64,000 bases of DNA. It comes from Candidatus Eiseniibacteriota bacterium. Lineage in GTDB: Bacteria > ARS69. Position 1 is the first letter of the stretch. Each line of letters starts with the position of its first letter. Below, one piece after another: positions 516 to 49,957 of the stretch. Under the pieces are notes generated by a model. The model had not been told where the DNA came from. It did no database searches and was given only the letters and a program-made list of their open reading frames with translations. The translations under genes and the position numbers were made by a program. The stretch is from assembly GCA_052390515.1 (NCBI GenBank), contig JBQTGV010000001.1, positions 1 through 64,000 of the forward strand, written 5' to 3'.

Positions 516-539
516 CGGAGACCGCGTGCGCGCGGCACG

Positions 540-1529: not shown

Positions 1530-1540
1530 CGTCTCTCCTC

Positions 1541-33659: not shown

Positions 33660-35776
33660 CGCAGCGGTCGGAGCGCATCGCCGCGGTGGCCGTGGTGCTC
33701 GCCGCGTCCACGCTCTGCCTCGTGCCGCTCTTCGAGCAGGTCCGCCATCCCGAGCCGTTCCTGAACGACGCCGTCCTGCACTACGGACTCATCGAGTGTC
33801 TCGCCGGTGCACACGAACGCGGGCAGAGCGTCCTCGATCCGTGGGTGCGCGCCTGGACGCTCGGCTTTCCGCTCTTCCACTACTACCAGAACCTGCCGCA
33901 TCTCCTGGTTCTCGCGCTGGCGAAGGTCTCGTTGGGCACGCTCTCACTCCTCACCGCGTTCCGGATCGTCGAGTGGCTCGCCCTCGGCACGCTGCCCCTG
34001 CCGGTGTTCGTCGCGCTGCGGCGGTTCGGGTTCCGCCCGCTCGCGGCCGCGGCCGGCGCCATGCTCGCACTCTGGCCCAAGACCGACTACCTGCACGGCG
34101 CGGACCTGGAGAGCTACACCTGGCAGGGGCTCGGCCTGTTCACCCAGGCCGTGGGCATGTGGATCTTCCCGCTCGCGCTCGCGTGGATCTATGGAGCGCT
34201 CCGCGAGGGGCGAGGTCTCGCGGGGGCGGCGTGGCTCTGCACCGCGACGCTCCTCTCGCATCTCGTGCTCGGCTGGCTCGTCTTCGTGTTCGCCGCGGTG
34301 ATCGCTCTGCTTTCGCCCAGGGAGGTGCCGGCGCGGCTCCGCCGCCTCGCGGTCGTCGCCCTGGTGACCGCCGCCGCCTCCTCGTACCTCTGGGTGCCGA
34401 TGCTCCGCGACTACGCGTGGCACCACATGAGCGACCTCGTCCCGACGTGGAAGTACGACTCGTTCGGCCACGCCGTCGTGCTGCAGCGGCTCGCCTCGGG
34501 CGCGCTCTTCGACTTCCAGCGCCTCCCGGTGCTCACGCTGCTGCTCGCGGCCGGCCTCGTCTGGCTCGGGGCGCGCACCGCGCTCTTCGCGCTCCGTCGC
34601 ACACCGCAGTCGGAGGGCGAACGGACGCTGCTCGCCCTGTTCGCCGTGTCTCTCGCCCTGTACTTCGGACGCCCGACCTGGGGCGGCCTGCTCGACCTCG
34701 TTCCCCTCGGCGGCGGCCTGCACTGGTCCCGCCTGCTGGCCGCCGTGCACCTGCTGGGCTGCGCCGTCGCCGGGGTCGGCGCCGCGGAGCTCTTGCTTCG
34801 ACTCTCCCATCGCGGGGTGCTCGGCGTCGCCGCGGCGCTCGTTCTCGCCGGGGCCGCCGTCCTTCCGCTCGCCAAGGAGCGCACGGCGTACCTGCGCCAC
34901 AACGCGGCGCTCGTGCGTGAATCCGCCGCCGGGCTCGAGGCGGAGCGCAGCGACCTCGAGCAGGCGCTCGTCCTCGCGGCGCAGGACACCAACGGCCGAG
35001 TCTACGCCGGTCAGGGGCGGGCCGGCGGGCACACCTGGGGCGGGCAGTTCCTGGTGGGCTGGGTTCCCGTGTACGATTTCCCTCCCATGCGTCAGATGGA
35101 CGCGGTCACCTACCTGCATCACATGGCTTCGATGAACTCCGACCTGCACGATGCGTTCGACGAGCGCAACCTCGCGGACTACCGCGCGTTCAACGTGCGC
35201 CGCATCATCGCGCCGGCGGACGTCCGCTTCGCCTCCTTCGCCAGCGAGATCGGCTCGTTCGGACGCTTCCGCGTGCTGGCGGTGGACGGCCCCGGATTCG
35301 TCGAGCTGGTGGACGTGCCGTACGCGGTGGACGTGCCCCGCGAGAACGTCGCGCGGACGCACGTGGCATGGCTCCGGCGTCTGGCACCACTCGGCGTCCA
35401 CCCCGAGGTGCGGCTCACGGAAGGGTCGTCCGCGGCGTACGACGTGCGCTTCCCCGATGCGCCCCTCCCCGATTCCCCGCGCGGGGAGGTGCTGCACGTG
35501 GGGCGAAGCGGCGACGACTTCACCGCGGAGGTCCGCGCCGACCGGCCGTGCCACGCGGTGCTCAAGATGACCTACCATCCGGGTTGGCGCACGTGGGTGG
35601 ACGGAGCGCCGGCGCGAGCGGTGCACGTGCTGCCGAGCTATCTTGCCGTGCCGCTCGCCGCCGGCCGGCACACCGTGGAACTGCGCTGGGAACCCGGTCC
35701 GCTGAAGGAGATCCTGGCGGGGACGGGGATGCTCGTGCTAGTGGCGTTCACCTTCTTCGCGAGGCGGATCCGATGA
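33656..35776 (+). CDS. YfhO/PTPS-related membrane protein, GT-C-like
   Basis: NDAVLH, GFPLFHYYQNLPH, many TMs, C-terminal TYHPGWRTWVDG...GRHTVEL and a final TM. TTGA coupling. Confidence 0.7.
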   Translation: MTQRSERIAAVAVVLAASTLCLVPLFEQVRHPEPFLNDAVLHYGLIECLAGAHERGQSVLDPWVRAWTLGFPLFHYYQNLPHLLVLALAKVSLGTLSLLTAFRIVEWLALGTLPLPVFVALRRFGFRPLAAAAGAMLALWPKTDYLHGADLESYTWQGLGLFTQAVGMWIFPLALAWIYGALREGRGLAGAAWLCTATLLSHLVLGWLVFVFAAVIALLSPREVPARLRRLAVVALVTAAASSYLWVPMLRDYAWHHMSDLVPTWKYDSFGHAVVLQRLASGALFDFQRLPVLTLLLAAGLVWLGARTALFALRRTPQSEGERTLLALFAVSLALYFGRPTWGGLLDLVPLGGGLHWSRLLAAVHLLGCAVAGVGAAELLLRLSHRGVLGVAAALVLAGAAVLPLAKERTAYLRHNAALVRESAAGLEAERSDLEQALVLAAQDTNGRVYAGQGRAGGHTWGGQFLVGWVPVYDFPPMRQMDAVTYLHHMASMNSDLHDAFDERNLADYRAFNVRRIIAPADVRFASFASEIGSFGRFRVLAVDGPGFVELVDVPYAVDVPRENVARTHVAWLRRLAPLGVHPEVRLTEGSSAAYDVRFPDAPLPDSPRGEVLHVGRSGDDFTAEVRADRPCHAVLKMTYHPGWRTWVDGAPARAVHVLPSYLAVPLAAGRHTVELRWEPGPLKEILAGTGMLVLVAFTFFARRIR

Positions 35777-36846
35777 CGCCCTCCCGAGCGCGCGGCCTTC
35801 TGATGAGCACCGTCGTCGTGGTCGCCGTGCTCCTGCTACTCGTGCCGGTGGCCGAGCTGATCGTACGCGGCGTGAAGCCGCAGACCCTGCCGTCGCAGCA
35901 GGCTCTGCAGGGCGCCGTGCTCAAGGGCATGTACGTGCCCGATGACGACGCCGGCTACCGGCTCGCGCCGAACTTCGCCGGCCGCCTGGAGAAGGCCGGC
36001 ATCGTCACCGAGTTCTCCACCAACTCGCTCGGGCTGCGCGGTCCCGAGCCGGGGGCGAAGAGGGCCGCGCGCATCCTCGCGCTGGGCGACTCCTACGTGT
36101 TCGGGTGGGGCGTCGCGCAGGGCGAAGAGTGGATCGAGCTCGTCGAGAGCGAGCTGAACGCGAAGCTCGGCGCCGGCACCGTCGAGGCCTGGAACGGCGG
36201 GGTGAACGGCTACGGGACCATCGGCGCGCTCGCACACCTGCGCCGGCTCGGGCCGGCGCTGCGTCCGGATCTCGTGCTGCTCGGCTTCTTCGCCAACGAC
36301 TTCACCGACAACTTCCTCGGCAACGTCTACGAGGTCCGCGACGGCTACCTCTTCGACCGCTTCTCGCACGACTACTACCAGGAGAACTTTCTCGCTCGGG
36401 AGAGCCACCTGTACCGGCTCCTGTCGGTCGCGTGGGAGACCGCGCGGATCCGCTGGCTCGGGGGCGTGCCGACCACACGCCCGGTGCGGAACTTCACCGA
36501 GGCGGACTTCGAGCGCGGCCGGGAGATCTCCGAGCAGCTGATTCTTGCGTTTCGTGACGAGTGCGCTGCGCTCGGCGCGAGATTCGCCGTGATCTGGTTG
36601 CCCGCGGACGTGTATGCTGTAGCCGGATCGCGGCCGGAGGACATTCCCCTCCAGCACGCGCTGCAGAAGCGCATCGAGGCGGCGGGAGTCCCGAGCCTCG
36701 ACCTGCTTCCCGTTGCGACGAGCGAGCCGCGCGTCGCGGGACTCTACCTGCTCCCCGCCGACGGGCACCTCTCCGTCCGCGGGAACCGCGTCATGGGAAG
36801 GGCCGTCGCGAAATGGATCTCGGAAGAAGAGCTGCGCGGACCATGA
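35773..36846 (+). CDS. Membrane-anchored SGNH/GDSL protein
   Basis: TNSLGLRG, LGDSYVFG, NGGVNGYG, FFAND, DGHLS. ATGA coupling. Confidence 0.88.
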   Translation: MTPSRARGLLMSTVVVVAVLLLLVPVAELIVRGVKPQTLPSQQALQGAVLKGMYVPDDDAGYRLAPNFAGRLEKAGIVTEFSTNSLGLRGPEPGAKRAARILALGDSYVFGWGVAQGEEWIELVESELNAKLGAGTVEAWNGGVNGYGTIGALAHLRRLGPALRPDLVLLGFFANDFTDNFLGNVYEVRDGYLFDRFSHDYYQENFLARESHLYRLLSVAWETARIRWLGGVPTTRPVRNFTEADFERGREISEQLILAFRDECAALGARFAVIWLPADVYAVAGSRPEDIPLQHALQKRIEAAGVPSLDLLPVATSEPRVAGLYLLPADGHLSVRGNRVMGRAVAKWISEEELRGP

Positions 36847-37379
36847 AAGCGGCTCTGCCGGCTGCGTGCCTCGCCGTGCTGGCCGCGCTCGTCCCCACAT
36901 TCGCAGGAGCCGACGCGGGCGGTGCAGGCGACGCGGGCAGTCCGGCCGACGACGACGCCCGCCGCGAACCTTCGCTCTGGACCGTCGGCGCGGGCCGCTC
37001 CGGCTTCCGCGATGCTCCGGTCGCCGGGCTTCTGGCCGTCACGTACCACCATCGCCCGCTGGCCGGACCGGTCCGGCCGCTGGCAGGCGCGCTCGCTTCC
37101 GGGGACGGCAGCGGCTTCCTCTTCGGCGGATTGAGCTGCGACCTCGAGCTTCGCAGCGGGCTCGGAGCGACGCCGATCCTCACCGCCGGGTACTACGAGC
37201 GCGGCGGCGGCATGAACCTGGGCGGGGCGTTCGAGTTCCGTTCGGGGTTCGAGATCTACCATCGCGTGGGCAGCTTCTCCCGCGTCGGGCTCAGCATCCA
37301 CCACGTCTCCAACGCGGGGTTCTACGATCGGAATCCCGGGCAGGAGACGCTTTTCCTGTCGTACGGGGTGGCGCGGTAG
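36843..37379 (+). CDS. PagL-like outer-membrane acyloxyacyl hydrolase / lipid A deacylase
   Basis: Signal peptide; FEFRSG, HHVSNAG...NPGQE catalytic motif, beta-strand pattern. ATGA coupling. Confidence 0.82.
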   Translation: MKAALPAACLAVLAALVPTFAGADAGGAGDAGSPADDDARREPSLWTVGAGRSGFRDAPVAGLLAVTYHHRPLAGPVRPLAGALASGDGSGFLFGGLSCDLELRSGLGATPILTAGYYERGGGMNLGGAFEFRSGFEIYHRVGSFSRVGLSIHHVSNAGFYDRNPGQETLFLSYGVAR

Positions 37380-37382
37380 ACG

Positions 37383-39278
37383 TCAGCCCGCGCTCCACGA
37401 CCGCAAGTACGCATCCAGCGCGGCCCGCTCCTCCGCCGTGCCCACCGCGTCCCGGAACATCGCCGCGACGCGCCGCGTCTCCGGATCCGCGGCTCCGTCC
37501 GCGACCGCGCCGAGCTCGGCCTTCGCCTCCGCCGGACGCCCGTGCAGCGCGAGCGCGAGCCCCCGTTGCAGGCGCACCTTCCAGGCCGGCGGCGAAGCAT
37601 CGGCCATCCGCGACGCCTCGCGCTCCGCCTCCGCCGGCCGCCCCGCGAGGTTCAGCGCCATGACCAGCTCCCACTGCGCGGCCTCGTTCCCCGGCTCGTG
37701 GCGAAGCGCCTCGCGCAGCTGCGCCGCCGCCTCGTCGAAGCGGCCGGCGCGCAGTGCGATTCCGCCGAGATTTTGCCGCGCCAGCGACCAGAGCGGGCGA
37801 AGCTCCGGCCGCGTCTCCGGCGGCTCGACGGTGCGGAGGAAGCGCTCGAGCTTGCGCCGCGCGTTGTCGTGGAATCCGTTCTCGAAATCGCGACCGGCCA
37901 TGGCCACGTCGACCAAGTCCTTGGGATCGAAGCCCTCCCGGCGAAGCTCCTCGGGAGCGGTGCGTGCAACCGGCGGCGTCGCGGCCGGCGCCCCCGCCGG
38001 CCCGCCCCCGGCCGCGTAGCCGAGCGCGCGCAGCGCCTCCATGCGCTCGTCGTCCGGCGCGACCGGCTCCGCCCACCCGGAACGAATCCCGATCGTCTGG
38101 AGCACGAGGTCCTCGAGCTCATCGGCGAGCTCCTCCACTTCGCCCTCGCGCTCCGCCGCGAGATCCCGTGTCTCGCCCGGGTCGGCGACCACGTCGTACA
38201 GCTCCGGCCTCGGCGCCCAGACCAGCTTCCGATCCCGCGTGCGCAGCGCCTTCACCGGCGAACCGCCCCAGAGCCGCGGCTGCACCGTTTCGCAGTAGGC
38301 CACGGTTCCGGGGATGGGACCCTCGCCGCGAAGCACCGGGACGAGACTGCCCCCGGCGCCGAACGCGGGCGGTGCGCCGGCGAGGTGCAGGAGCGTCGGC
38401 GCGACGTCCACCGTCCGCACCACCTCCGAGAGCACCGTGCCAGCGGGCACAAGCGGTCCTCTCAACAGGAGCGGCACTCTCACGGTCTCGTCGTACAGCA
38501 AGATCCCGTGCTCGTCCTCGCCGTGATCATCGAGCCCTTCCCCGTGATCCGCGGTCACCACCACGGCGGCGCTCTCCGGGATCTCCCGCGCGAAGCGGCG
38601 TAGCTCGTAGTCCATGCACTCGATCTCGGCGAGGTAGCGGTCCGCCTGCGTGCGGTTCCAGGGCGGCGGCGCGTCGTACGGGAAGTGCGCGTCATAGAGG
38701 TGCAGCCACAGGAAGAAGCGCGACCCGCCACCGGCCAAGCGGCCAACCGCCGCGGTCGCGCGCGCCACCGCCTCGTCCGCGCGGCGGTCCACCGCGGGCA
38801 GCCAGTGCCGCTCGCGCGGGAAGACGGACTCGTCCTGCACCTCGTACGGCGAGGTCAGGGAGTCGTCGAACGCGTCGAATCCCTGCGCGATCCCGGTCGC
38901 CGCCTCCAGCACCCGGGAGGAGACGACCGCCTCGGTGCGGAAGCCGAGCTCGCCGAAGCGCTCGGCGAGCGTCGGCGCCGCTTCGCCCAGCCGCGCGTCG
39001 CCGTTGGTGCGCACTCCGTGATAGAGCGAAGGCGTCCCGGTGAACATCGTGACGTGGCTCGGCAGCGTGAGCGGCACGTCGGCGAAGGCGTGCTCGACGA
39101 TGGCTCCGGTCCTCGCCCACGAGTCGAGCAGCGGCGTCCTCACGTCCGGGCATCCGTACACGCCGATGCCGTCGGCGCGCGTCGTGTCCAGCGTGATCAG
39201 GATCACGTCGCGGCGCGGCGCCGGAGGGCCCGCACACCCGGCGATCAGCACGCAGAGAAAGATCCCCGACGGACGCAT
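37383..39278 (-). CDS. Sulfatase-like / alkaline-phosphatase-superfamily lipoprotein with C-terminal TPRs
   Basis: Lipobox IAGC; LITLDTTRAD, TLPSH, HLYDAHFPY, TADHGE, ELYD, LRALGY, TPR helices. Confidence 0.85.
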   Translation of the reverse strand: MRPSGIFLCVLIAGCAGPPAPRRDVILITLDTTRADGIGVYGCPDVRTPLLDSWARTGAIVEHAFADVPLTLPSHVTMFTGTPSLYHGVRTNGDARLGEAAPTLAERFGELGFRTEAVVSSRVLEAATGIAQGFDAFDDSLTSPYEVQDESVFPRERHWLPAVDRRADEAVARATAAVGRLAGGGSRFFLWLHLYDAHFPYDAPPPWNRTQADRYLAEIECMDYELRRFAREIPESAAVVVTADHGEGLDDHGEDEHGILLYDETVRVPLLLRGPLVPAGTVLSEVVRTVDVAPTLLHLAGAPPAFGAGGSLVPVLRGEGPIPGTVAYCETVQPRLWGGSPVKALRTRDRKLVWAPRPELYDVVADPGETRDLAAEREGEVEELADELEDLVLQTIGIRSGWAEPVAPDDERMEALRALGYAAGGGPAGAPAATPPVARTAPEELRREGFDPKDLVDVAMAGRDFENGFHDNARRKLERFLRTVEPPETRPELRPLWSLARQNLGGIALRAGRFDEAAAQLREALRHEPGNEAAQWELVMALNLAGRPAEAEREASRMADASPPAWKVRLQRGLALALHGRPAEAKAELGAVADGAADPETRRVAAMFRDAVGTAEERAALDAYLRSWSAG

Positions 39279-39353
39279 CGCGGCATCGTAGCGCGCCCGG
39301 CATCATCCCGCCACGGTGGCCGCCCATCGGACACGGTGGTACCATGCATCGCC

Positions 39354-41144
39354 ATGTCGGGATGCGACCAGATCGTTCTTCTGCTCGGAGGCGCGGGCCT
39401 GGTCGGCTTCCAGTGCGCGCGCCACATCTCGCGGGACCTGCGCCCGCGGCGCGTGGTGCTGGTCTCGCTGTATCGTCAGGAGACCGCCGACGCGGTCGCC
39501 GCGCTCTCCAACGAGTTCCCCGAAATCGACGTGGCCGGCTACTACGGCAACCTCTTCGTCCGCGGGGAGCCGACTCCGGTGGACCGGCAGGCGCCGGAAC
39601 CCTCGCCGCGCGAGTTCGCCGAGGTCGCCGCGAACCGCCAGGCGATCTTCGCCGATCTCTTCGGCGACTTCGAGACGGCCTATCGAGAGTCGTTTCTCGC
39701 ACGCCTTCTGCGGAGAGAGCGCCCGGGCGCCGTCATCGACTCGGTCAACACGGCGACGGCCATCAGTTACCAGGACATCTTCTCGAGCTCGTTCATCGTC
39801 TCCCGGGACCTCGAGGAGGCCCGCGCCGCCCACGACGTCTCCGACGCGTTCACCGCCGACGTCGAGAAGCACCTGATCTCCGGCGCCGTGCCGCAGCTCA
39901 TCCTGCACGTTCGGCTGCTGCACCGTGCGCTCGTGGAGGCCGGCACGCGCATCTACGTCAAGGTGGGAACGACGGGGACGGGCGGCATGGGGCTCAACAT
40001 CCCGTACACGCACGGCGAGGACAAGCCCAGCCCCACATTGATGTCCAAGACGGCGACCGCCTTCGCGCAGACCGGGCTGCTCTTTCTCATGGCGCGCACG
40101 CCGTCTTCGCCGATCATCAAGGAGATCAAGCCGGCGGCGATGATCGGCTACAAGCGCATCGGCTTCCAGCCCGTGCGCGGGCTGCAGTATCGCGCCAACG
40201 GAACCGGCGGCGTGCGCCTCGCGACCGACGAGCCTTATCACCTGTTCCGCGCCCGCGAACAGACTCTCGGCGAGACGCTGGACACCGAGCCGCGCTTCGA
40301 CGGGTTCGCCGCGGTCCACGACGCGTCGGGGAATCGAGCCACGCTGACCATCCCCTGCGTGAACACCGGCGAGAACGGGACCTTCGCGCGGGGGGAGTTC
40401 GAGGCGATCACCGCGCTCGGGCAGATGGAGTTCGTGACGCCGGAGGAGATCGCGCAGCTCGTGACCCTGGAGATCCTGGGAAGCAACACCGGCCGAGACG
40501 TCATCTCCGCGGTCGACTCGACCATCCTCTCCCCCTCGTACAAGGGCGGACTCATCCGCCGCGTCGCCATCGACGAGCTGGACAAGCTGGAGCAGGAGCG
40601 GGGCGTGCCGTCCATCGCCATCGGCCAGCTCGGTCCCCCGCAGCTGGCCAAGTACCTCTACGAAGCGCACTTCTTCCGCGAGCTGTACGGGACGGTGGAG
40701 GGCGCGCTGCGGGAGGCCGGCGGCGCGCCGCGCACCGCCGCGTCCGTCTCCGCGGCGATGAGCGCGCACGTTCTGGCCAGCCCCCTGCGCGACACCATCA
40801 CCTCGGTGGGGATCCCCATCCTGATGCCCGACGGCAAGACGATCCTGCGCGGGCCGGTCATCCGCATCCCTCCGTACAATCGCAAAGCCCACGTCTTCCC
40901 GCTGGGCAACGGGAAAGTCGACGAGTTTGCCGAGCGCGGCTGGGTCGATCTGCGCGAGCGACACATGGCCTGGTGGCTCGAGCAGTTCGGCCGCATGCGG
41001 GAGTCCGTGCTGCGGCGGGAGACGAAGTGGAGCTCCGAGCGGCTCGACATTCGCTCGTATCTGTCCGAGGAGATCCGTATCGGCGAGGTCGTCGCCTGGA
41101 TCTTCAACAACGTGATCGAACCGCCGGGACACCGGATCAAGTAG
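39354..41144 (+). CDS. Long NAD(P)-binding Rossmann-fold protein (SDR-like), function unknown
   Basis: VLLLGGAGLVG at the N-terminus; IDSVNTATAI, VKVGTTGTGGMGLNIPYTH. 596 aa. Confidence 0.7.
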   Translation: MSGCDQIVLLLGGAGLVGFQCARHISRDLRPRRVVLVSLYRQETADAVAALSNEFPEIDVAGYYGNLFVRGEPTPVDRQAPEPSPREFAEVAANRQAIFADLFGDFETAYRESFLARLLRRERPGAVIDSVNTATAISYQDIFSSSFIVSRDLEEARAAHDVSDAFTADVEKHLISGAVPQLILHVRLLHRALVEAGTRIYVKVGTTGTGGMGLNIPYTHGEDKPSPTLMSKTATAFAQTGLLFLMARTPSSPIIKEIKPAAMIGYKRIGFQPVRGLQYRANGTGGVRLATDEPYHLFRAREQTLGETLDTEPRFDGFAAVHDASGNRATLTIPCVNTGENGTFARGEFEAITALGQMEFVTPEEIAQLVTLEILGSNTGRDVISAVDSTILSPSYKGGLIRRVAIDELDKLEQERGVPSIAIGQLGPPQLAKYLYEAHFFRELYGTVEGALREAGGAPRTAASVSAAMSAHVLASPLRDTITSVGIPILMPDGKTILRGPVIRIPPYNRKAHVFPLGNGKVDEFAERGWVDLRERHMAWWLEQFGRMRESVLRRETKWSSERLDIRSYLSEEIRIGEVVAWIFNNVIEPPGHRIK

Positions 41145-41152
41145 GCGCGCCG

Positions 41153-44100
41153 ATGACCGGAACCGATCTCTCCTCCGGAGCCGCGTTCGACGCCGGCTTG
41201 CTCGCGCGCGTGCGCGACGCGCTCGTGCCGCTGGAGGCGGGGCCGGCGGGCGCGGACCGCGGCGTCGCCGCGGCAGCCACCGCCCTGCTCCGCGCCACCC
41301 GCGAGACGCTGCAGAAGCTGTCCGAGGCGGAGCCCGCCGGAGCGCACGGCTACCGCTCCCTGCTGCACCGCGTTCTGGAGGCCGCCGCCTCGCGCGGGGT
41401 GCGCACCGCCTTCGCCTCCACGCCCTTCGCCGCCGAGTGGACCGAGCTGCTGCTCGAGGCGGTGACCGCCTCGGACTACACCACCGGGCGGCTGTTCTTC
41501 TCCAGGGCGCGCGCGCTCGGCGACCGTACGCTCTTCCTGCTGCCCTGGACCCGTCGCGAGGGGCGCGTGTCCTGGCGTGAGGCGGAAGCGCGCGTGCTCG
41601 ACATCGGCCGGGCGTTGCTCGCGTCGAAGGCCAGGGATCCGACCGGGGGTCCGATCGCCGTCCTCGGGGCGAACTCGCCGGAGCTCGCGCTTTTCGACCT
41701 CGCGTGCCTGGTTTCCGGAGCGGCCGACGTGCCCGTTCCGGCGAACTCCACGCCGGCGCAGGTCGAGTTCATCCTGGGACACTGCCGCGCGTCGGCACTC
41801 TTCCTGGGAGACGAGGAAGCCGCGGCGGTGGCGGCTCCGGCCCTGAACTCCTCCAGGATTCCGGCTTGGTGGCTGCCAGAGGAGGCCCCGCCCTCCGATC
41901 GCATCCGACCCTTCCGCGAGTTCCTCGATCTCGGCGCCGGCGTTTCGCCCGAGGACGCGCGTCACACCTCCGCCACGGTGCGGTCCGGCGACCTCGCCAC
42001 GATCATGTACACGTCCGGCACGACGGGTGCGCCGAAAGGCGTCCCTTTCACCCACGCGAACCTCGTGACGACGCGGTTCGCGCGCGCCGCGGCCTGGCCG
42101 GACATCGGCGAGGGCGACGTCTTCCTCTGCTACCTGCCCCTCTATCACACGTTCGGCAGGTGGCTGGAGATGCTCGGCTGCGTGTTCTGGGGATCGGTGT
42201 ACGCGTTCGTGGACGACGCCTCCATCGAGCCGCTGCTCCATTCCTTCGCGCGCGTGCGTCCGACGACCTTCATCTCCGTTCCGAAGAAGTGGATGCAGAT
42301 CGCGGAGGCGGTGGCGCCGCTGGACGAGGCCGAGCCGACGTCCGCCGCGGACAAGGCGCGGATGGCGCGGGAGCTCGTGGAGAGGACCGGCGGACGGCTG
42401 CGCCGAGGACTCTCCGCCGCGGGCTACCTCCCGCCCTCGGTGTTCCGTCGCTTCCACGCCGCGGGCATCGAGCTGCACTCCGGCTTCGGCATGACCGAGG
42501 CGACCGGCGGGATCACCATGACCCCCGCGGCCGACTACCGCGACGACTCCATCGGACTGGCCCTGCCGGGCATCGAGCTGCGCGTGGCCGAGGACGGCGA
42601 GCTGCTCATCCGCGGACCTTACGTGACCCCGCCCGCCGCCGACGAGCCCCCCCGCGAGGACGGCTGGCTGGCCACCGGGGACATCGTGCGCGTCGACGCG
42701 CAGGGCCACTATCGCATCGTCGACCGCAAGAAGGAGATCTTCAAGAACGTGCAGGGTGAGACGATCTCGCCGCGCCGCATCGAGACTCTCTTCGAGGACT
42801 TCGATTCGGTCGAGCGCGTCCTCGCCGTGGGAGACCGGCGCGAGTACTGCGCGGCGCTCATCGTTCCGAGCGCGGAGCTGCGGACCGACTTCGCCTCCTC
42901 CCGCCGGGGCGACACGCTCGAGTCGCTGGAGCTGCGCGAGATCTTCGCCCCCGTTGTCGAGGCGGTGAACCGTTTCCTCGCGCCCTTCGAGCGCATCCTG
43001 GACTTCGCGGTGCTGGCCGAGGATCTCGACCCCGAGAAGGAGCTCACCGCGAAGGGAACGCCCAAGCGGAGCGTCGTGGGCGAACGCTTCGCCGAGGTGA
43101 TCCGCACCATCTACGCTCGGGAGCAGGTGGCGGTGACCGTCGGCGACGTGGAGTGCAAGCTGCCGCAGTGGTTCCTGCGAAACACCGGCATCCCCGCCGG
43201 CGAGGTCCGCGCGGAGGGCTCGGAGCTCGTGGCCGCGGGGCGAAGGCTCGCCGTGCGCCGCGAGAAGAGCGGGATCGTCGTCGGCGATGCCGTCTACGAT
43301 CCGGGAGGAGCGGATCTCCTCCTCGGCGAGATCTTCGGGCGCGCGCGGCTCTGGCTCGGGAACGACGCGGTGCGCCGCTTCGCCGGCTCGGGGATCGAGC
43401 ACTGGTGGCGGCGCGGCGTTCGCTTCCCGACCCGGACGCGGCTGGTCCGACGCATGCCCCTCGCCGGAGCACCGGACGTCCCGTCCCCGCTGGCGCGGTC
43501 CGTCACCATCGGGGATCTGCACGCGGCGGCCCGCGTGCTGGCCGATCCCGACGCGGCACGACGCCGGGAAGCGGTCGTTCGGCTTGGCGAGACGCTGGCC
43601 AGCGAGGCGCGGGACGCCGACCCGATGACCAAGGAGATCCTGCTCTCGTGCTTCTCCGACCCGGACGTGCGCGTCGAGGCGCTGCGCGCGGTGGCGCGCT
43701 CGCTGTCGCCCGCGCAGCTCGATCGTCTCGTCACCGAGCGGCTGCCCTTCGACCCGAGCTTCCTGACGCCGGAGGAAGCGGCGGAGCTCGGTCCGATGAC
43801 TCTGCGCAGCGACCAGCTGGACGTGCTCGTCGCGCGGGCTCGGGCCTGGTGCGAGCCGGACGCCGGCGTGCCGGCGCACGCGCTCGACCGACTGCTCGGC
43901 TGGCTGCGGCGCGTCGCGGTCGAGCATCCGGAGAGCCACCTCGCGGTGCGCTCGCTCCTCGTGGACCTCGCCGAGCTTCCGCTGGACGACGCGCTCCGCG
44001 AGCGACTCGAGGACCACCTGGGGACTCTGGTCCGCGAGTTCCGCGCGCGGCTCCCCGCTCCCGCCACCGCCGACGGCGTTACCTGGGAGCAGGCCGTCGA

Positions 44101-45856
44101 GCTGGACGGCGTCTCGCCGGACGACGGCGCGCGCATCCGCCGGGCGATCGCGGCAGAGAAGCTGCTGCCCGAGGCGATGGCTCTCTTCGGAACGAGCCCG
44201 GCGCGGGATCTGCCGCCGCTCGCGGCGCGCTCGGTGCGGATCTCCCTGCTCGGACTCGGCGAGGGACGCTCCGTCAACCTGCTGGAGTGGTCGCCCGCCG
44301 GCCTCGACCACGGTCCGCCGCGCTTCGAGTGCGTGGTGAAGGCGGACCGCGGCGTCGGGTGGAGCGAGGTCCAGGAAGAGATGCGGCTGCTGGTGCGGGC
44401 GCGCACCGGCGAATCGGGGCGACCCATCGTCAAGACGCAGGGCGGCGGATACCGCGAGCACGGCGTGTGGACCGAGGAGTTCGTGCCGGGCAAGTCCCTG
44501 GACGAGCTGGTCGACGCGCTCGCCGCCGAGGACGACGGCGCCGGCGCCCGGCTCCGCGAGCTCTGGCCCTTCCTCGTCTCCTCCTGCGCGGCCCTGGTCG
44601 TGGACTTCTGGCGAAGAACGGGACGCCGCGTGACGCTCTCGAAGGCCTCGGCGGACAAGCTCGTGCTGCCGGACCATGACTGGCTCGTCGGCGGCCGCCT
44701 CGTCTCCATCGCCGAGCGCCGCCAGTGCGAGCGGCTGACGGACGTGCTCGCCGGCGTGCACTCGGGAATCGTGCTTCCGATCGCCGAGCGGCATGCACGC
44801 GCCGAGCTCGACACCGCATGGCCGCAGCTCCTCTCGGCCGCGCTCGAAGTGCTCGGCGAAGTGGAGGGGTGCGCGCGCCTCGAAGAGGAGGAAGGCGGCC
44901 TCGATCCCGACGGCGAGCTCGCCGGGGCGATCCGCCGCTTCGTTTCGGGCGTGCGCCGGCGCGGGTTCCTGCCGCTGCGCATCCGCGTCGCGGCGCGGCG
45001 CTACCGCAGGTGGCAACAGATCAACGCCGACGCGACGCTCGAGGCACAGGCGGCCACGCTGGACCAGATCGAGGACGCGTACGGCCTGGGCGATCTGGAC
45101 CGGGACCGCCCCGGCTCCCGCCTGCAGCTCTTCCGCCACACCGTGTTTCGCGGATCGGGCGAAGAGTTGACCAAGGGACTCGACGAGCTGATCGCCAAGG
45201 GGCTGGCCTCGCCGCCGGCGCTGGCGGAGCTGCACCGCGAGGTCACCCACCTCCGGGACACGGCGCACCCCAGCGAGCTCGACGAGTTCTTCCTGGCGCG
45301 CATGCTCTATCCGCACGTCGATCCGCGCGGCCGCGCCGTGCTCGTGCGCGAGGAGGACCAGCCCGGCGAGTTCGACACCGGCGTGGCGGTGGAGCACGTC
45401 GACTCGGAGGGCGAAGTCTTCCGCATCCGCCGCCCGGCCAACCCGGGAGAGATCGCCGCGCTCGGCCGGGTGTTCCGGGCCGCGGGTATTCGACGGCTTC
45501 CGCGCGCCGGCGAGGACGACCTCCTGCTGGTGACCGACTCGGACGAGCGCGTGCTTGGCGGGCTCATCTCCCGGCGCATCAGCGACACGTACGTGCGGCT
45601 GGACTGGCTCGCGCTGGGCCGGCACCGCCGGGCCCGCGGCATCGGCTCCATCCTGATCCGCGAGTTCCTGGAGCGGCTCCGGGCGCAGGGAGTGCGGGTC
45701 GTCTCCACCGGATTCTTCCGTCCGGCATTCTTCGCCAATTTCGGCTTCGGCGTGGATCCACGCTACGCCGGTCTCGTCCGCTTCCTGGACGCGGAGAGCC
45801 CGGCCCCCTTGCCCGGGGTCAAGCCGACCCGCGACGATTCCGAACGGGAACGGTAG
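41153..45856 (+). CDS. Multidomain protein: AMP-dependent acyl-CoA-synthetase domain, helical region, kinase-like segment, C-terminal GNAT
   Basis: IMYTSGTTGAPKG, GFGMTE, WLATGD, VDRKKEIFK; later LGLGEGRSV...VVK...EEM...EFVPGKSL; C-terminal LALGRHRRARGIGSILI...FFANFGF. About 1567 aa from the ATG at 41153. Confidence 0.8.
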   Translation: MTGTDLSSGAAFDAGLLARVRDALVPLEAGPAGADRGVAAAATALLRATRETLQKLSEAEPAGAHGYRSLLHRVLEAAASRGVRTAFASTPFAAEWTELLLEAVTASDYTTGRLFFSRARALGDRTLFLLPWTRREGRVSWREAEARVLDIGRALLASKARDPTGGPIAVLGANSPELALFDLACLVSGAADVPVPANSTPAQVEFILGHCRASALFLGDEEAAAVAAPALNSSRIPAWWLPEEAPPSDRIRPFREFLDLGAGVSPEDARHTSATVRSGDLATIMYTSGTTGAPKGVPFTHANLVTTRFARAAAWPDIGEGDVFLCYLPLYHTFGRWLEMLGCVFWGSVYAFVDDASIEPLLHSFARVRPTTFISVPKKWMQIAEAVAPLDEAEPTSAADKARMARELVERTGGRLRRGLSAAGYLPPSVFRRFHAAGIELHSGFGMTEATGGITMTPAADYRDDSIGLALPGIELRVAEDGELLIRGPYVTPPAADEPPREDGWLATGDIVRVDAQGHYRIVDRKKEIFKNVQGETISPRRIETLFEDFDSVERVLAVGDRREYCAALIVPSAELRTDFASSRRGDTLESLELREIFAPVVEAVNRFLAPFERILDFAVLAEDLDPEKELTAKGTPKRSVVGERFAEVIRTIYAREQVAVTVGDVECKLPQWFLRNTGIPAGEVRAEGSELVAAGRRLAVRREKSGIVVGDAVYDPGGADLLLGEIFGRARLWLGNDAVRRFAGSGIEHWWRRGVRFPTRTRLVRRMPLAGAPDVPSPLARSVTIGDLHAAARVLADPDAARRREAVVRLGETLASEARDADPMTKEILLSCFSDPDVRVEALRAVARSLSPAQLDRLVTERLPFDPSFLTPEEAAELGPMTLRSDQLDVLVARARAWCEPDAGVPAHALDRLLGWLRRVAVEHPESHLAVRSLLVDLAELPLDDALRERLEDHLGTLVREFRARLPAPATADGVTWEQAVELDGVSPDDGARIRRAIAAEKLLPEAMALFGTSPARDLPPLAARSVRISLLGLGEGRSVNLLEWSPAGLDHGPPRFECVVKADRGVGWSEVQEEMRLLVRARTGESGRPIVKTQGGGYREHGVWTEEFVPGKSLDELVDALAAEDDGAGARLRELWPFLVSSCAALVVDFWRRTGRRVTLSKASADKLVLPDHDWLVGGRLVSIAERRQCERLTDVLAGVHSGIVLPIAERHARAELDTAWPQLLSAALEVLGEVEGCARLEEEEGGLDPDGELAGAIRRFVSGVRRRGFLPLRIRVAARRYRRWQQINADATLEAQAATLDQIEDAYGLGDLDRDRPGSRLQLFRHTVFRGSGEELTKGLDELIAKGLASPPALAELHREVTHLRDTAHPSELDEFFLARMLYPHVDPRGRAVLVREEDQPGEFDTGVAVEHVDSEGEVFRIRRPANPGEIAALGRVFRAAGIRRLPRAGEDDLLLVTDSDERVLGGLISRRISDTYVRLDWLALGRHRRARGIGSILIREFLERLRAQGVRVVSTGFFRPAFFANFGFGVDPRYAGLVRFLDAESPAPLPGVKPTRDDSERER

Positions 45857-45864
45857 GAGGGGCG

Positions 45865-47547
45865 ATGGAGACGAGACCGTGGCACTCGGCCTATGACCCG
45901 GGCGTCCCGCCCACGATCGACTACGCGAACGTGCCGCTGCACGGGTTCCTGCGGCGGGCGGCCGCCCGCTTCCCGGATTTCGCCGCGGTGTGCTTCCTGA
46001 ACCGCACCTTCACCTACCGCGAGCTCGATCACTACGCCACCCGCTTCGCTCGCGCGCTCGAGGACGCCGGCGTCGTGAAGGGGGATCGCGTGGCCATCCA
46101 GCTGCCCAATCTCCCGCAGACGGTGATCGCGTTCTTCGGGACGCTGCGTGCGGGCGCGGTGGCGGTGATGACCAATCCGCTCTACACCTCGCGGGAGATC
46201 GAGCACCAGTGGAACGACGCCGGCTGCAAGGTCGCGGTGACGGCCGACTTCCTCTACCGGAAGAGCGTGGCAAAGGTTCGCGACCGGCTTTCCGTCGAGA
46301 CTTACGTGATCGCCCGCATTCCCGAGTACCTGCGCTTCCCGCTGAACGTGCTGGCGCCGCTCAAGCTGAAGCGCGAGGGACTCATGGCGGACGTGCCGCG
46401 GGCGAAGAACGTCTTCCGCTTCCGGGAGTTCGTGGACGCGGCGCTGGTCATCCGGCCGGAGATCCCCCTGGAGATGAGCGACCTCGCCGCGCTGCAGTAC
46501 ACCGGGGGCACGACCGGCGTGCCCAAGGGCGCGATGCTCACGCACGGGAACCTGTCGTGGCAGGCACAGCAGCTCCACGCCTGGCTGCCGGATCTCGAGC
46601 CGGGCAAGGAGGTGTTCCTCTCGGCGCTCCCCTTCTTCCACGTGTTCGGGCTGACCGTCGCGATGAGCCTGCCCGTCGAGCTCGGCGCGACGATGGTGCT
46701 CATGCCCAACCCGCGGGACGTCGAGGCGATGATCGACGCGATCAATCGCCGGGCCGTGACGATCTTCCCGGTCGTCCCGGCGATGGTGCACGGGATCAAC
46801 CAGCATCCGAACGCCGCATCCCTCGAGGTGAAGGGACTCAAGATCTGCGTCTCGGGGTCCGCGCCGATGCCGGAGCCGACGCTGCGCCGCTTCGAGGAGC
46901 TGACCGGTGGGAAGATCGTCGAGGGTTACGGGCTGACGGAGGCTTCACCGGTGACTCACGTGAACCCGAACCGCGGGCGCCGCAAGGTGAACACCATCGG
47001 GCTGCCGCTTCCCGATACGGATTGCCGCATCCTGTCGATGAAGGATGGGACGACGCCGGTGGGCCCGGGCGAGGACGGCGAGCTCGTGATCCGCGGGCCG
47101 CAGGTCATGGCCGGGTACTGGAAGCGGCCGGACGAGACCGCCCATGCCATCCGCGACGGTTGGCTGCACACCGGGGATCTCGCCGCCGCCGACGAGGACG
47201 GCTACTTCCGCATCTCCGGACGGCTCAAGGACCTGATCCTGTGCTCCGGCTACAACGTGTACCCGGACGAGGTGGACCGGATCATCGTGGAGCATCCCGC
47301 CGTGCTCGAGTGCGCGACGATCGGCGTGCCCGATGAGAAGCGGGGCGAGTCGGTGAAGTCGTTCGTCGTGCGGCGGCCCGGCGCCGACCTCTCCGCCGAC
47401 GAGCTGACCGCGTGGTGCCGCGACCGCCTCGCGGCCTACAAGGTGCCGCGGAGGATCGAGTTCCGCGCGGAGCTGCCCAAGAGCAGCGTGCTCAAGATCC
47501 TGCGGCGGCAGTTGCTGGAGGAGGAGCTGGCGGGGCGGGGGAAGTAG
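45865..47547 (+). CDS. fadD: Long-chain fatty acid--CoA ligase
   Basis: LQYTGGTTGVPKG, LPFFHVFG, EGYGLTEASP, GPQVMAGYW, WLHTGD, NVYPDEVD, LAAYKVP. AGGAGG RBS. Confidence 0.9.
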   Translation: METRPWHSAYDPGVPPTIDYANVPLHGFLRRAAARFPDFAAVCFLNRTFTYRELDHYATRFARALEDAGVVKGDRVAIQLPNLPQTVIAFFGTLRAGAVAVMTNPLYTSREIEHQWNDAGCKVAVTADFLYRKSVAKVRDRLSVETYVIARIPEYLRFPLNVLAPLKLKREGLMADVPRAKNVFRFREFVDAALVIRPEIPLEMSDLAALQYTGGTTGVPKGAMLTHGNLSWQAQQLHAWLPDLEPGKEVFLSALPFFHVFGLTVAMSLPVELGATMVLMPNPRDVEAMIDAINRRAVTIFPVVPAMVHGINQHPNAASLEVKGLKICVSGSAPMPEPTLRRFEELTGGKIVEGYGLTEASPVTHVNPNRGRRKVNTIGLPLPDTDCRILSMKDGTTPVGPGEDGELVIRGPQVMAGYWKRPDETAHAIRDGWLHTGDLAAADEDGYFRISGRLKDLILCSGYNVYPDEVDRIIVEHPAVLECATIGVPDEKRGESVKSFVVRRPGADLSADELTAWCRDRLAAYKVPRRIEFRAELPKSSVLKILRRQLLEEELAGRGK

Positions 47548-47614: not shown

Positions 47615-48715
47615 ATGCTGGCACTGCAGCGGTTCTCCGCGGTGGCGGTCTTCGTCTGGCTCAGCCTTCCCGTTCATGCCGCGACGATTCGCGTCCCCCA
47701 GGACCAGCCCACGATCAAGGCCGCAGTCGCCGCCGCGAATGCAGGTGACGTCGTACTCATCGCTTGCGGAAACTACGTCGAGAACGGGATCGTCGTGACG
47801 GTCCCCATCCAGTTGAAGAGCGAGACGGGCGATCCTTCCTGCGTTTCCGTCGACGCCTCGGGTGGCATCGCGTTTCATGCGTTCGGATCGGGTAGCAGCA
47901 TCACCCTGGATGGCATCCGCGTGTACCGCGGCTATCGCGGCCTGTCTTCCTCGGTCGCCACCACGATTCGATCCTGCGTCTTCGAGACGCTGGGGGCCGC
48001 CCCTGCCGGCTACGGCTATGCCGACGGTGGAGCCATCTCCGTGTCTGGGGTGACGGACGTCTACGACAGCGAGTTCCGCTGGAACTTCGCGGCGAACGGC
48101 GGCGCGGTCATTACTGGCCCCAATGCCGCCTTCTACCGTTGTCTGTTCGCTCACAACTTCGCCCTGGAAAACGGCGGCGCCATCGCCTCTTCGTCCTTGA
48201 ACACACGGCTCGTCGACTGCCTGTTCTTCCGCAACCAGTCGCTCGGCGGAGGATTCGGCGGAGCGCTGTACGCGGCGTCCAACGCATTCGTGAGCGGATG
48301 CACCTTCATCGAGAACGCCGCTGGCTTCGAGGCCGGCGCAGCCATGTACCTCACGGGAACCGCCCAGGTGGTCAACACCCTGATCGCGGTCAACTACGGC
48401 GGGGGCGCGGTCCGTTGCTCGGGCTCTCCGACGTTCTCCTGCTGCGACATCTACGGAAACGCGTACGGGGACTGGGTCTCGTGCATCGCTGGCCAGCTGG
48501 GCGTGAACGGGAACTTCTCCGCCGACCCGCTCTTCTGCGATTTGGCCGCCCGCGTGTTGACCCTGGACGCCGAGTCGCCCTGTCTGCCGGGAAACCACCC
48601 CGCGGGCTCCGCCTGCGGCCAGATCGGGAGGTTCGGGATGGGCTGCACCGTCGTCTCAGCGGGCCACGGACTGACGAGTGCCCCGTGGGGTCGGGTCAAG
48701 TCCCTGTACCGCTGA
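47615..48715 (+). CDS. Secreted right-handed beta-helix (Pmp/pectin-lyase-like) protein with C-terminal PWGRVKSLYR
   Basis: Signal peptide, VPQDQPTIKAAV, repeated FxxN/GGA(I/V/L) units, NFSADPLFC, SPCLPG. GGAGG RBS. Confidence 0.82.
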   Translation: MLALQRFSAVAVFVWLSLPVHAATIRVPQDQPTIKAAVAAANAGDVVLIACGNYVENGIVVTVPIQLKSETGDPSCVSVDASGGIAFHAFGSGSSITLDGIRVYRGYRGLSSSVATTIRSCVFETLGAAPAGYGYADGGAISVSGVTDVYDSEFRWNFAANGGAVITGPNAAFYRCLFAHNFALENGGAIASSSLNTRLVDCLFFRNQSLGGGFGGALYAASNAFVSGCTFIENAAGFEAGAAMYLTGTAQVVNTLIAVNYGGGAVRCSGSPTFSCCDIYGNAYGDWVSCIAGQLGVNGNFSADPLFCDLAARVLTLDAESPCLPGNHPAGSACGQIGRFGMGCTVVSAGHGLTSAPWGRVKSLYR

Positions 48716-49957
48716 CCTCGTCGCATACCCCCGCGTCACGCCGCCCCCGCGCTCTCCCCCGGCCCCCTCGGCGTACACGACGATCAGAACTCCGAGCGTC
48801 GAGAGCAGTGTGACCCCGGCGTGACTGTACGTCCACCAATCGCCGGCGAGCCGATAGCCGGCCACGCTCGACGCGATCACTGACGCAAGCAGGACCGCCG
48901 CCGTCGGAGAGAACCTCCGCCCCGCGCGACTGATCCGCCACGCCGCCCACACCTGAAGAAACGGAAGGAACACGAAGTAGTGCGGCCACGCGGTCGGGAT
49001 GATCAGCGGAATCGAGAGGGACAGCAGGGCGAATGCCGGAATCGGGTCCGAGCCCGGACGGCCGCGCATCCACCGGCCGAGCAACACCAAGTTCATCGCG
49101 AAGAGCGCGCCGGCCGCCCAGCGAAGCGCCGTTCTCGTCCCGGAGCCGTCCTCCCCCAGCGGACGAGCGGCTCCGTCCGCCCGGTAGCTCCAACGCTCGA
49201 CGACGTGAGGAAGGTACTGCGAGTTCACGTCCACCGTGATCTTCGCTCGATCGGTTTCCATGTTCGCCGCCGCGTCGCGGTAGAAGCCGATCGTGTCCCG
49301 CGGTCCCAGCACGAGCGCGGGAAGCAGGAACCCGAAGGCCGCCCAGCCCGCCGCGAACCACGCGAGGAACCTCCAGTCCCTGCGAAAGAGAAAGTACGCG
49401 AGGTAGACGACCGGATAGAACTTGATGCTCACGGCGAAGGCCAGCACGAGCGCCGCCGCGACGACGCGACGATACCCGTAGAGGAACATCGATCCGAAGG
49501 CCAGGAGGGTCATCAGGACGCTGACCTGGCCCCACTTGAAGTTGTGCAGCACGGGCATCGAAGTGAGGAACACGAGCACGTAGGCCCAGAACAGCACGCG
49601 GCCGCGCCGCACCAACCACGGACCGGGAACGAGGAGCAGGCCCAGCATCCAGAGCCCCTGCAGGACTCCCCAAGCAGTGAGCGCTCCGGGCAAGGAGAGC
49701 GCCCCGAGCGGGGCGATCAGAACGGCGAACGTCGGAGAGTAGTAGTAGCCGGGGTAGGGCCGGCGTCTCTCGAGGAGGTCCTCCGCCACCGGATGGAATC
49801 GCATCGTATAGTCCGCGAACAACCGGGGGTTGATGTCCACTTCGCGGACGAAATCGCGCGTGGAATCCCACGTGCTCGTCCAGGCCAGCCAGACCAGCGC
49901 GACCGTCGCGGCGACGAAGGCCAGCGCCGCCCACCGCTTGGGGGCCGATCCCGTCAC
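48656..49957 (-). CDS. GT87/DUF2029-like membrane glycosyltransferase (GT-C)
   Basis: YYYSPTFA, NFKWGQVS, SIKFYP, NSQ, PTAWPHY. GTG start overlaps the ZIP stop codon. Confidence 0.78.
   Translation of the reverse strand: MTGSAPKRWAALAFVAATVALVWLAWTSTWDSTRDFVREVDINPRLFADYTMRFHPVAEDLLERRRPYPGYYYSPTFAVLIAPLGALSLPGALTAWGVLQGLWMLGLLLVPGPWLVRRGRVLFWAYVLVFLTSMPVLHNFKWGQVSVLMTLLAFGSMFLYGYRRVVAAALVLAFAVSIKFYPVVYLAYFLFRRDWRFLAWFAAGWAAFGFLLPALVLGPRDTIGFYRDAAANMETDRAKITVDVNSQYLPHVVERWSYRADGAARPLGEDGSGTRTALRWAAGALFAMNLVLLGRWMRGRPGSDPIPAFALLSLSIPLIIPTAWPHYFVFLPFLQVWAAWRISRAGRRFSPTAAVLLASVIASSVAGYRLAGDWWTYSHAGVTLLSTLGVLIVVYAEGAGGERGGGVTRGYATRSAVQGLDPTPRGTRQSVAR

Follow-up and report, generated by a model that had tools for sequence, protein, structure and literature searches.

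A probable kinase-fold pseudokinase embedded between the acyl-CoA ligase and GNAT domains of a bacterial fusion protein

Architecture of the fusion gene

The stretch of DNA analysed here (the window) comprises 64,000 nucleotides of a Candidatus Eiseniibacteriota bacterium (GenBank assembly GCA_052390515.1, contig JBQTGV010000001.1, positions 1 to 64,000) with a G+C content of ~70%, and it carries a gene for a protein of 1,567 amino acids (aa) in which an AMP-forming acyl-CoA ligase is separated from a GNAT acyltransferase by ~790 residues where Pfam detected nothing significant. Within this unannotated part lies a domain of protein-kinase-like (PKL) fold, very probably a pseudokinase, which is the subject of this report. 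The gene occupies 41153-45856 of the forward strand, stop codon included, and its product begins with MTGTDLSS. A listed open reading frame (ORF) of 2,170 aa at 39344-45856 (+) was rejected as the gene; it is one frame spanning two genes, the first 603 codons being an Arg-rich, out-of-frame reading of the upstream gene, a typical artefact of DNA with 70% G+C. The gene and its parts are as follows.

41153..45856, forward strand: whole gene, a fusion of ligase, beta domain, helical repeat, PKL domain, helical linker and GNAT
41504..43123 (aa 118-657), forward strand: AMP-forming acyl-CoA ligase of the FadD11/long-chain type (Pfam AMP-binding and AMP-binding_C_3)
43130..43462 (aa 660-770), forward strand: beta-rich domain of no family (strands in the model of aa 660-1567; no Pfam match)
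43505..44047 (aa 785-965), forward strand: helical repeat, weakly HEAT-like (helices in the model of aa 660-1567)
44225..45052 (aa 1025-1300), forward strand: PKL domain, very probably a pseudokinase (AlphaFold2 model, Foldseek, ESM Atlas)
45053..45322 (aa 1301-1390), forward strand: helical linker from the PKL domain to the GNAT (helices; predicted local distance difference test, pLDDT, mostly >90)
45323..45787 (aa 1391-1545), forward strand: GNAT acyltransferase domain (Pfam, Foldseek)

An earlier reading of the window made from its letters and ORFs (the sequence-only reading) had placed a degenerate kinase-like domain inside an adenylation-GNAT fusion. This placement is correct, because in a Pfam search of the full protein the ligase (AMP-binding, aa 118-492, 1e-61; AMP-binding_C_3, aa 533-657, 6.9e-13) and the GNAT (aa 1454-1535) flank a stretch that matches no family. 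The N-terminal part belongs to the ANL superfamily by its AMP-binding profile and its conserved core motifs, T287, S288, G289, G292, P294 and K634 being invariant among 53 sequences; from its position we take K634 to be the A10 lysine. The NCBIfam models that matched the ligase part were those of long-chain fatty-acid-CoA ligases, every one under its cut-off. The C-terminal part is a GNAT by both profile and fold: it scored 22.4 bits against Pfam Acetyltransf_1 (1.5e-4; cut-off 20.7 bits), and the model of aa 660-1567 matched YhbS (4rs2, 1e-4), Ard1 (4pv6) and 2r7h in Foldseek. An R-x-x-G-x-G string recognised by eye at aa 1493-1498 is presumably the GNAT motif. The helical repeat matched Pfam HEAT_2 at E=0.018-0.049, under the cut-off.

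The central domain is predicted to adopt a bilobal kinase-like fold

When aa 960-1440 were modelled by AlphaFold2 from an alignment of 82 relatives, the mean pLDDT was 92.6 and the predicted template modelling score (pTM) was 0.88. The modelled N-lobe consists of five strands and helix alphaC (strands 1028-1036, 1039-1046 and 1058-1065, then helix 1070-1084 and strands 1096-1100 and 1105-1109), and the hinge leads into helices 1116-1125 and 1132-1155, the short strands 1160-62, 1170-71, 1182-83 and 1189-91 of a beta6-beta9 sheet, and then an all-helical C-lobe. The model contains no long activation segment, only ~8 residues running from strand beta8 to helix alphaF. Foldseek comparison of this model with the PDB returned 154 matches at E<=0.001, and all those listed are protein kinases or kinase-like enzymes. 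The lowest E-value was that of Archaeoglobus fulgidus Rio1 (4jin, 1.7e-5; template modelling (TM) score by target 0.53) and the highest TM-scores were those of Bud32 (4ww7, 0.62) and PRPK (6wqx, 0.61); further matches included JAK1-3, the C-terminal domain of MSK1, FGFR, Rio2 and PsiK. The fold foreseen by the sequence-only reading, for which structure prediction with Foldseek had been proposed as the check, is thus the one obtained, and according to the model aa ~1025-1300 form a true protein-kinase-like domain.

A feature search of the ESM Atlas gave an independent line toward kinase-like families, which we use as leads only: the nearest named clusters, with scores of 0.92-0.95, were DUF6206 (16 of 30 matches), ABC1/RIO1, APH, Kdo, Pkinase/RIO1/ABC1 and WaaY. 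An ATP-grasp fold, prompted by an EEF[IV]PG string, was also considered and was ruled out by the topology of the model and the Foldseek matches.

Sequence profiles did not recognise the domain as a kinase. No kinase-clan profile matched the 790-aa and 283-aa segments of this protein in Pfam at E<=10, and the same threshold applied singly to 66 members of the family yielded no RIO1, Kdo, ABC1, APH or Pkinase match, only 20 unrelated families with at most two members each; neither the window segments nor the 66 members can therefore be assigned to the PKL superfamily by a Pfam kinase-clan profile. A phmmer search of the PDB sequences found three alpha-crystallin matches only (E>=0.62), and a 66-row family profile searched against the same sequences found two, both non-kinase (E 0.059 and 0.82). 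The sequence signature of the RIO/Bud32 family is absent, and the likeness to RIO/Bud32 is structural only. When the family profile was compared by hhalign with 13 ordinary Ser/Thr kinase domains taken from the flanks of related loci, the two aligned collinearly across 118 columns with a probability of 2.4% and an E-value of 0.02.

One reading of these searches is that the motifs match by coincidence only and that the segment has no kinase-like fold but, for example, an ATP-grasp or an unrelated one: every sequence-based search missed a kinase, and the hhalign probability is low. Such a coincidence is hard to reconcile with a confident model of kinase topology, 154 kinase matches, kinase-like ESM Atlas neighbours and a collinear mapping of the motifs, and we give it almost no credence. 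The PKL domain has instead diverged past detection by sequence profiles.

The binding motifs are kept and the catalytic residues are replaced

The kinase motifs, the conserved H1175-D1176 pair and the DFG position lie in the gene as follows, the residue assignments being those of the hhalign alignment or of the model as marked.

44246-44275 (aa 1032-1041), forward strand: Gly-rich loop LLGLGEGRSV; R1039 at the third-Gly position of GxGxxG (hhalign)
44327-44341 (aa 1059-1063), forward strand: strand beta3 ECVVK; K1063 at the VAIK-Lys position (hhalign)
44372-44392 (aa 1074-1080), forward strand: alphaC segment QEEMRLL; E1076 is the alphaC Glu (hhalign), within model helix 1070-1084
44468-44512 (aa 1106-1120), forward strand: strand beta5 and hinge WTEEFVPGKSLDELV; E1109 is the hinge Glu (hhalign)
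44636-44668 (aa 1162-1172), forward strand: catalytic loop LSKASADKLVL, degenerate; K1164 in the HRD-Asp column, K1169 in that of the Asn (hhalign)
44675..44680, forward strand: H1175-D1176 pair in a long beta7-beta8 turn, coil between strands in the model; no canonical kinase role
44696-44713 (aa 1182-1187), forward strand: strand beta8 and DFG position RLVSIA, placed by the strand order of the model

All six strings quoted in the sequence-only reading were found in frame on the forward strand, in the kinase order that it gave, between 44246 and 44713. The span it proposed, 44240-44730, covers the domain from the N-lobe to strand beta8, but the full domain extends to ~45052. Its assignments of the Gly loop, the beta3 Lys, the alphaC Glu, the hinge and the HRD..N region were reproduced by the hhalign profile alignment, where LSKASADKLVL appears as a remnant of HRDLKPxN and P1167 aligns with the Pro of the catalytic loop. 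The assignment of RLVSIA to the DFG position fits the strand order of the model, but this string lies outside the hhalign alignment, which ended earlier. A true HxD or DFG motif at H1175-D1176 was also considered; it was ruled out, although not with certainty, by the location of the pair in the coil between beta7 and beta8 of the model and by the HRD Asp position at 1164 in the hhalign alignment.

The protein therefore retains the Gly-rich loop, the beta3 Lys and the alphaC Glu (G1034, G1036, G1038, K1063 and E1076), and it has K1164 and K1169 in the columns of the catalytic Asp and Asn. The metal-binding Asp of DFG is likewise missing, aa 1184-1188 reading VSIAE in a placement taken from strand order alone. 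The two lysines and the lack of an acidic DFG residue imply that canonical phosphotransfer does not take place, and hence that the domain is a pseudokinase, the term already used in the sequence-only reading. A kinase fold lacking at least one of the VAIK Lys, the HRD Asp and the DFG Asp is the operational definition of a pseudokinase (PMC4718504), and the domain fits this definition. We regard it as highly probable that the domain in this protein is a PKL pseudokinase.

Conservation among relatives and a relocated lysine

The 82 relatives used for the model are 1228-1643 aa long and 29-94% identical to this protein across aa 960-1440; conservation was counted over the 83 sequences together.

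Gly loop, of 83: G1034 73; G1038 77; V1041 74
alphaC and hinge, of 83: E1076 81; E1108 83; E1109 83; G1113 82
Helix positions, of 83: W1138 83; W1153 83; R1155 83
beta7-beta8 region, of 83: H1175 80; D1176 83; G1180 82; R1182 82; S1185 82

The sequence-only reading would have been undermined by a lack of motif conservation in homologs. The alphaC Glu (81 of 83) and the hinge Glu pair (all 83) are conserved as it expected, but the beta3 Lys is not: position 1063 is Lys in only 32 sequences and Asn in 51, and position 1039 on the Gly-rich loop is Lys in 51 and Arg in 32. The residues at 1039 and 1063 are paired as K/N in 50 sequences, R/K in 31, K/K in one and R/N in one, and one of the two sites thus holds a Lys in 82 of 83. 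A shift of the Lys from position 72 to 55 is described for WNK kinases and a CAK subfamily (PMC1821047, PMC4718504), and as far as the aligned residues tell, the exchange between 1039 and 1063 is the same relocation as in WNK.

The catalytic-loop positions are far more variable, with E 21, D 17, N 9, S 7 and others at 1164 and K 22, A 22, N 16 and D 13 at 1169 (n=83). As to whether any homologs retain the catalytic Asp, which the sequence-only reading had raised as a check, Asp and Asn occur together in 12 of the 83 sequences and in at least 46 rows of a wider set of 168, which consists of 66 alignment rows and 102 representatives from a profile search, probably with some overlap; their commonest form in this set is D-P-S-P-x-N. 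Neither the 83-row nor the 168-row alignment shows a conserved acidic residue where the DFG motif would fall: position 1186 is I, L or V, and at 1188 Asp occurs in 40 of the 83 sequences, with Gly in 45 rows and Asp in 43 of the wider set. The best-conserved PKL residues among the 168 rows are D1176 (159), S1185 (155), P1167 (140) and R1182 (129).

A domain with enzymatic activity, an atypical kinase or ATPase like RIO/Bud32 that phosphorylates a protein, the acyl substrate or itself, would agree with RIO1 and Bud32/PRPK being the top structural matches, with the presence of the Lys, the Glu and the Gly loop, and with the Asp and Asn found together in some relatives; the relocated Lys supports catalysis in WNK (PMC4718504). 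In this protein, however, 1164 and 1169 are both Lys, the family has no conserved acidic DFG residue (1185 being Ser besides the variable 1186 and 1188), and the members searched singly against Pfam gave none of the kinase-type matches named above, all of which makes such an enzyme very unlikely.

A scaffold and regulatory module is the favoured explanation

Modelled together from a 69-row alignment, aa 660-1567 reached a pLDDT of 90.8 and a pTM of 0.88, and such a pTM over 908 residues indicates that this part of the predicted structure is a single confidently packed rigid body, with the PKL domain and the GNAT predicted to be rigidly packed. Mean column conservation was 0.52-0.56 in the PKL lobes, 0.56 in the GNAT and 0.63 in the ligase. 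In Foldseek the same model (43130-45853) was also aligned over 570-745 columns with Vps34, PI3K alpha, PI3KC2 alpha, mTOR/ATM and RNase L at TM-scores of 0.17-0.30, and the PI3K-type matches seem to reflect only a loose resemblance to a unit of helical repeat plus kinase fold.

The explanation that we favour, and consider moderately probable as a whole, is that the PKL pseudokinase serves the GNAT as a scaffold and regulatory module, without catalysis of its own, and probably binds a ligand in this clade. The most likely task of the domain would be to support and regulate the GNAT, in a role comparable, by analogy, to that of the N-terminal regulatory domains of class I-beta (type III) bacterial acetyltransferases. 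The PKL domain, the beta domain, the helical repeat, the linker and the GNAT are predicted to be welded into a rigid body of ~890 residues, to which the ligase is joined directly. In the clade of the window protein and its nearest relatives, an adenine-containing ligand (ATP, ADP, AMP or CoA/acyl-CoA) would probably be held via the Lys-Glu pair, and the Gly-rich loop, K1063, E1076 and the hinge retained in this protein support this, as does the Lys present at 1039 or 1063 in 82 of 83 sequences, which suggests selection on a phosphate-binding Lys. Ligand binding could then couple GNAT activity to the ligase, which would supply the acyl-CoA of the GNAT or be its target. Taken by itself, the proposal that the PKL domain acts as a ligand-binding regulator is a tentative one. 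The sequence-only reading had likewise suggested that the domain may bind nucleotide and couple ligase and GNAT allosterically.

Several observations weigh against the favoured explanation. The hhalign match to kinases is, at its probability, not significant alone. In a tree from 1,436 columns that excluded the PKL N-lobe, the 31 R/K sequences form a single clade with support of 1.0, and the relocation of the Lys is therefore a single event, an anecdote rather than statistical covariation and no more than suggestive. Many relatives have the catalytic-loop Asp and Asn, and residual catalysis may thus occur elsewhere in the family. The best-conserved residues, D1176, S1185, P1167 and R1182, occupy positions that are not canonical for nucleotide binding. 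E1076 is absent in 53 of the 168 rows, mostly the weaker representatives of the profile search, and the consensus of a divergent subfamily lacks the Gly-loop glycines, the Lys at either position and the hinge Glu pair, with His in place of the loop Lys and a hydrophobic residue at 1063, and retains P1167, N1169, D1176, R1182 and S1185 (its alignment, built with mafft --add, is less certain). Eight full-length divergent members were scanned, and AMP-binding was detected in all eight and GNAT in six (E<=0.001). Because these members lost the motifs and kept ligase and GNAT, the architecture appears independent of the nucleotide-binding set, which argues that nucleotide binding is not essential to it; the divergent subfamily thus speaks for a scaffold rather than for a nucleotide sensor that the protein could not do without. 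This subfamily comprises proteins of ~1,500-1,550 aa, P0171-P0231 among the representatives.

The same subfamily, which has ligase and GNAT without the Gly loop, Lys, alphaC Glu and hinge Glu pair, would suit a PKL domain that is a pure structural spacer, binding no ligand and only fixing the geometry of the GNAT, the helical parts and the ligase. A spacer is also in line with the free variation of the catalytic-loop positions, with the modelling of aa 660-1567 as one rigid body, and with a PKL domain that is not more conserved than the helical parts on either side of it. On the other hand, a Lys at one of two cleft positions in 82 of 83 sequences and an alphaC Glu in 81 are hard to square with an empty pocket, and we think a pure spacer rather unlikely.

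Conservation within the PKL domain peaks in the catalytic-loop and beta7-beta8 region, and the residues concerned are kept even in the divergent subfamily, as might be expected if the active site had been repurposed for non-kinase chemistry in or with the cleft; for example, acyl-AMP or acyl-CoA could be held there and the acyl group passed from the ligase to the GNAT via H1175-D1176, R1182 and S1185. SelO is a case of a kinase fold with non-kinase chemistry. Non-kinase chemistry by a kinase fold is also documented for SidJ (PMC6858067, PMC8548325). The strand order, however, puts H1175-D1176 in the beta7-beta8 turn, and a repurposed site is improbable in our judgement. A particular form of it, to which we attach a similarly small chance, is a three-station acyl relay in which an acyl intermediate made by the ligase would be bound at its adenylate or CoA end by H1175-D1176, R1182, S1185 and the mobile Lys and then passed to the GNAT. 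If true, the kinase fold would here carry or transfer acyl-nucleotides or acyl-CoA, a chemistry without a described precedent in this fold.

Distribution of the family and genomic neighbourhood

A scan of genomes found 99 relatives among 677 candidate stretches, in at least 99 species, and 80 loci were kept. The carriers belong to Gemmatimonadota, Acidobacteriota (Holophagae, Thermoanaerobaculales and Vicinamibacterales), Anaeromyxobacter, KSB1, Calditrichota, Ignavibacteria and Marinimicrobia, and two of them are cultured, Anaeromyxobacter terrae SG22 and A. oryzisoli SG63 (loci L063 and L066). In tblastn every locus uncut by contig ends gave one collinear match over ~aa 96-1548; a single match spans aa 980-1450 in 74 of the 80 loci, 9 of which were dropped for a stop or X in the matched translation, leaving 65 loci that were aligned. 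A profile search of 1.84 billion representatives (clusters at 50% identity) returned 321 at E<=0.001, 250 at E<=1e-10 and 125 at E<=1e-30, and the best 150 of the 321 are all proteins of ~1,500-1,700 aa or shorter pieces, with no other architecture among them. As far as these sequences go, the architecture is fixed.

Among 20 short relatives, 17 lie on contigs of at most 3.6 kb and are probably fragments. Three others, P0235 (676 aa), P0126 (675 aa) and P0240 (300 aa), carry the PKL domain with or without the GNAT on contigs of 16-81 kb and may be split or stand-alone forms. P0185 and P0188 have a Met start at the domain boundary.

In the window, the fusion gene is closely flanked on both sides.

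39336-41144, forward strand: upstream ORF of 602 aa with no Pfam family, ending 9 bases before the fusion gene
45865-47547, forward strand: second, ordinary AMP-binding ligase (AMP-binding 5e-100, AMP-binding_C 2.5e-19), starting 9 bases past the stop of the fusion gene

Because the 602-aa ORF ends so close to the fusion gene, the two probably form one operon. Judged by eye, a GGAGxVG stretch at the N-terminus of the 602-aa protein resembles a Rossmann motif. Both flanking genes recur in only one of the 80 loci (L001, with a copy of the 602-aa protein 70% identical upstream and a copy of the second ligase 66% identical), and the context therefore gives no functional clue. The flanks farther out, 33656-39278 and 47615-49957, are rich in cell-envelope genes, including a PTPS_related/YfhO-like membrane protein, a GDSL lipase, a PagL lipid A deacylase, a sulfatase with TPR repeats, a beta-helix protein and a GT87 glycosyltransferase. 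Such neighbours might suggest that the function of the fusion has to do with lipids, but the context is not conserved in other loci.

Genes of canonical Ser/Thr kinases were seen a few kb upstream of the fusion gene in several loci of Sulfomarinibacteraceae, Thermoanaerobaculales and Anaeromyxobacteraceae (L005:3619-4458(-), L006:1189-2100(-), L007:3078-3926(-), L020:2763-3632(-), L019:470-1432(-) and L025:1353-2315(-)), and also at ~530-2066(+) in L073, L075 and L079; their presence near the fusion loci may be chance in kinase-rich phyla. Elsewhere in the window, 8245-10860 and 17163-20024 (+) encode an M28 peptidase and a metallophosphoesterase with a PQQ beta-propeller, both large proteins of secreted type with a FlgD_ig/Por_Secre_tail-like sorting domain at the C-terminus.

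A sequence-orphan kinase-fold family in a new enzyme context

A literature search, with most subscription journals and supplements outside its reach, found no description of this family or architecture, and no mention of DUF6206 in the literature searched. In the accessible text of a 2025 review of bacterial pseudokinases (PMC12599244) the words 'GNAT', 'acetyltransferase' and 'AMP-binding' do not occur; the seven families that it describes all come from recognisable kinase sequences. The domain reported here represents a new sequence-orphan kinase-fold family in a new enzyme context.

Few protein folds have received as much study as that of the kinases, and research on bacterial pseudokinases is recent; this is a further family, one missed by profiles. 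Here the pseudokinase is fixed within a conserved protein of ~1,550 aa that unites two enzymes handling acyl-CoA, and it would add a new type of regulatory domain to the classification of GNATs. The family also offers a natural series on what a pseudokinase cleft is for, from members with the Lys-Glu pair and the Asp/Asn, through members like this protein without the Asp/Asn, to members without the nucleotide-binding motifs. Since two cultured Anaeromyxobacter species carry it, the family is experimentally accessible.

Comparison with known systems

RIO1/RIO2 and Bud32/PRPK include the best structural matches and are likewise compact kinase-like domains, whereas the present domain lacks the catalytic Asp, the Asn and the metal-binding Asp and is embedded in a multi-enzyme protein of 1,567 aa. 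WNKs are active kinases with HRD and DFG intact. They resemble the 51 of 83 relatives with a beta3 Asn and a Lys at the third-Gly position; they differ in that the window protein has the ordinary R1039/K1063 arrangement, the family is without the DFG Asp, and the two are unrelated in sequence. The seven bacterial Ser/Thr pseudokinase families (ActPs1-3, GLW, CP1, DYD and DLHK; PMC12599244) share with it a kinase fold and degraded catalytic motifs but were classified from recognisable kinase sequences, whereas this family is invisible to Pkinase profiles.

In function, the closest analogies are RNase L, the acetyltransferases that join a regulatory domain to a GNAT, and the AcuA-AcsA complex. 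In RNase L and IRE1 a (pseudo)kinase domain binds nucleotide and governs the C-terminal enzyme domain next to it; the order of repeat domain, pseudokinase and C-terminal catalytic domain is shared with the fusion protein, and RNase L (4o1p) was matched by the model of aa 660-1567 across 685 columns, at a low TM-score of 0.17-0.22. The pseudokinase of RNase L binds ATP and acts as a scaffold (PMC4718504). In RNase L, however, the C-terminal domain is an RNase and not a GNAT, and the canonical mode of nucleotide binding is kept.

Class I-beta (type III) bacterial lysine acetyltransferases, such as the Pat enzymes, also have a C-terminal GNAT after a large non-catalytic, potentially effector-binding domain (PMC6456759), and the fusion protein matches this domain order. 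The regulatory domains identified so far in these acetyltransferases are ACT, cAMP-binding and NADP-binding domains, none kinase-like according to the available text of that article. Unlike them, the present GNAT, known from profile and model, is fused in cis to an AMP-forming ligase. A physical association of a GNAT with an AMP-forming ligase is found in the AcuA-AcsA complex (PMC11255334). In AcuA-AcsA and Pat-Acs the GNAT acetylates the catalytic Lys of the ligase, whose putative counterpart here is the invariant K634; those partners are separate proteins and have no kinase-like domain, unlike this fusion. By analogy with them, we hypothesize that the GNAT may acetylate its fused ligase in cis.

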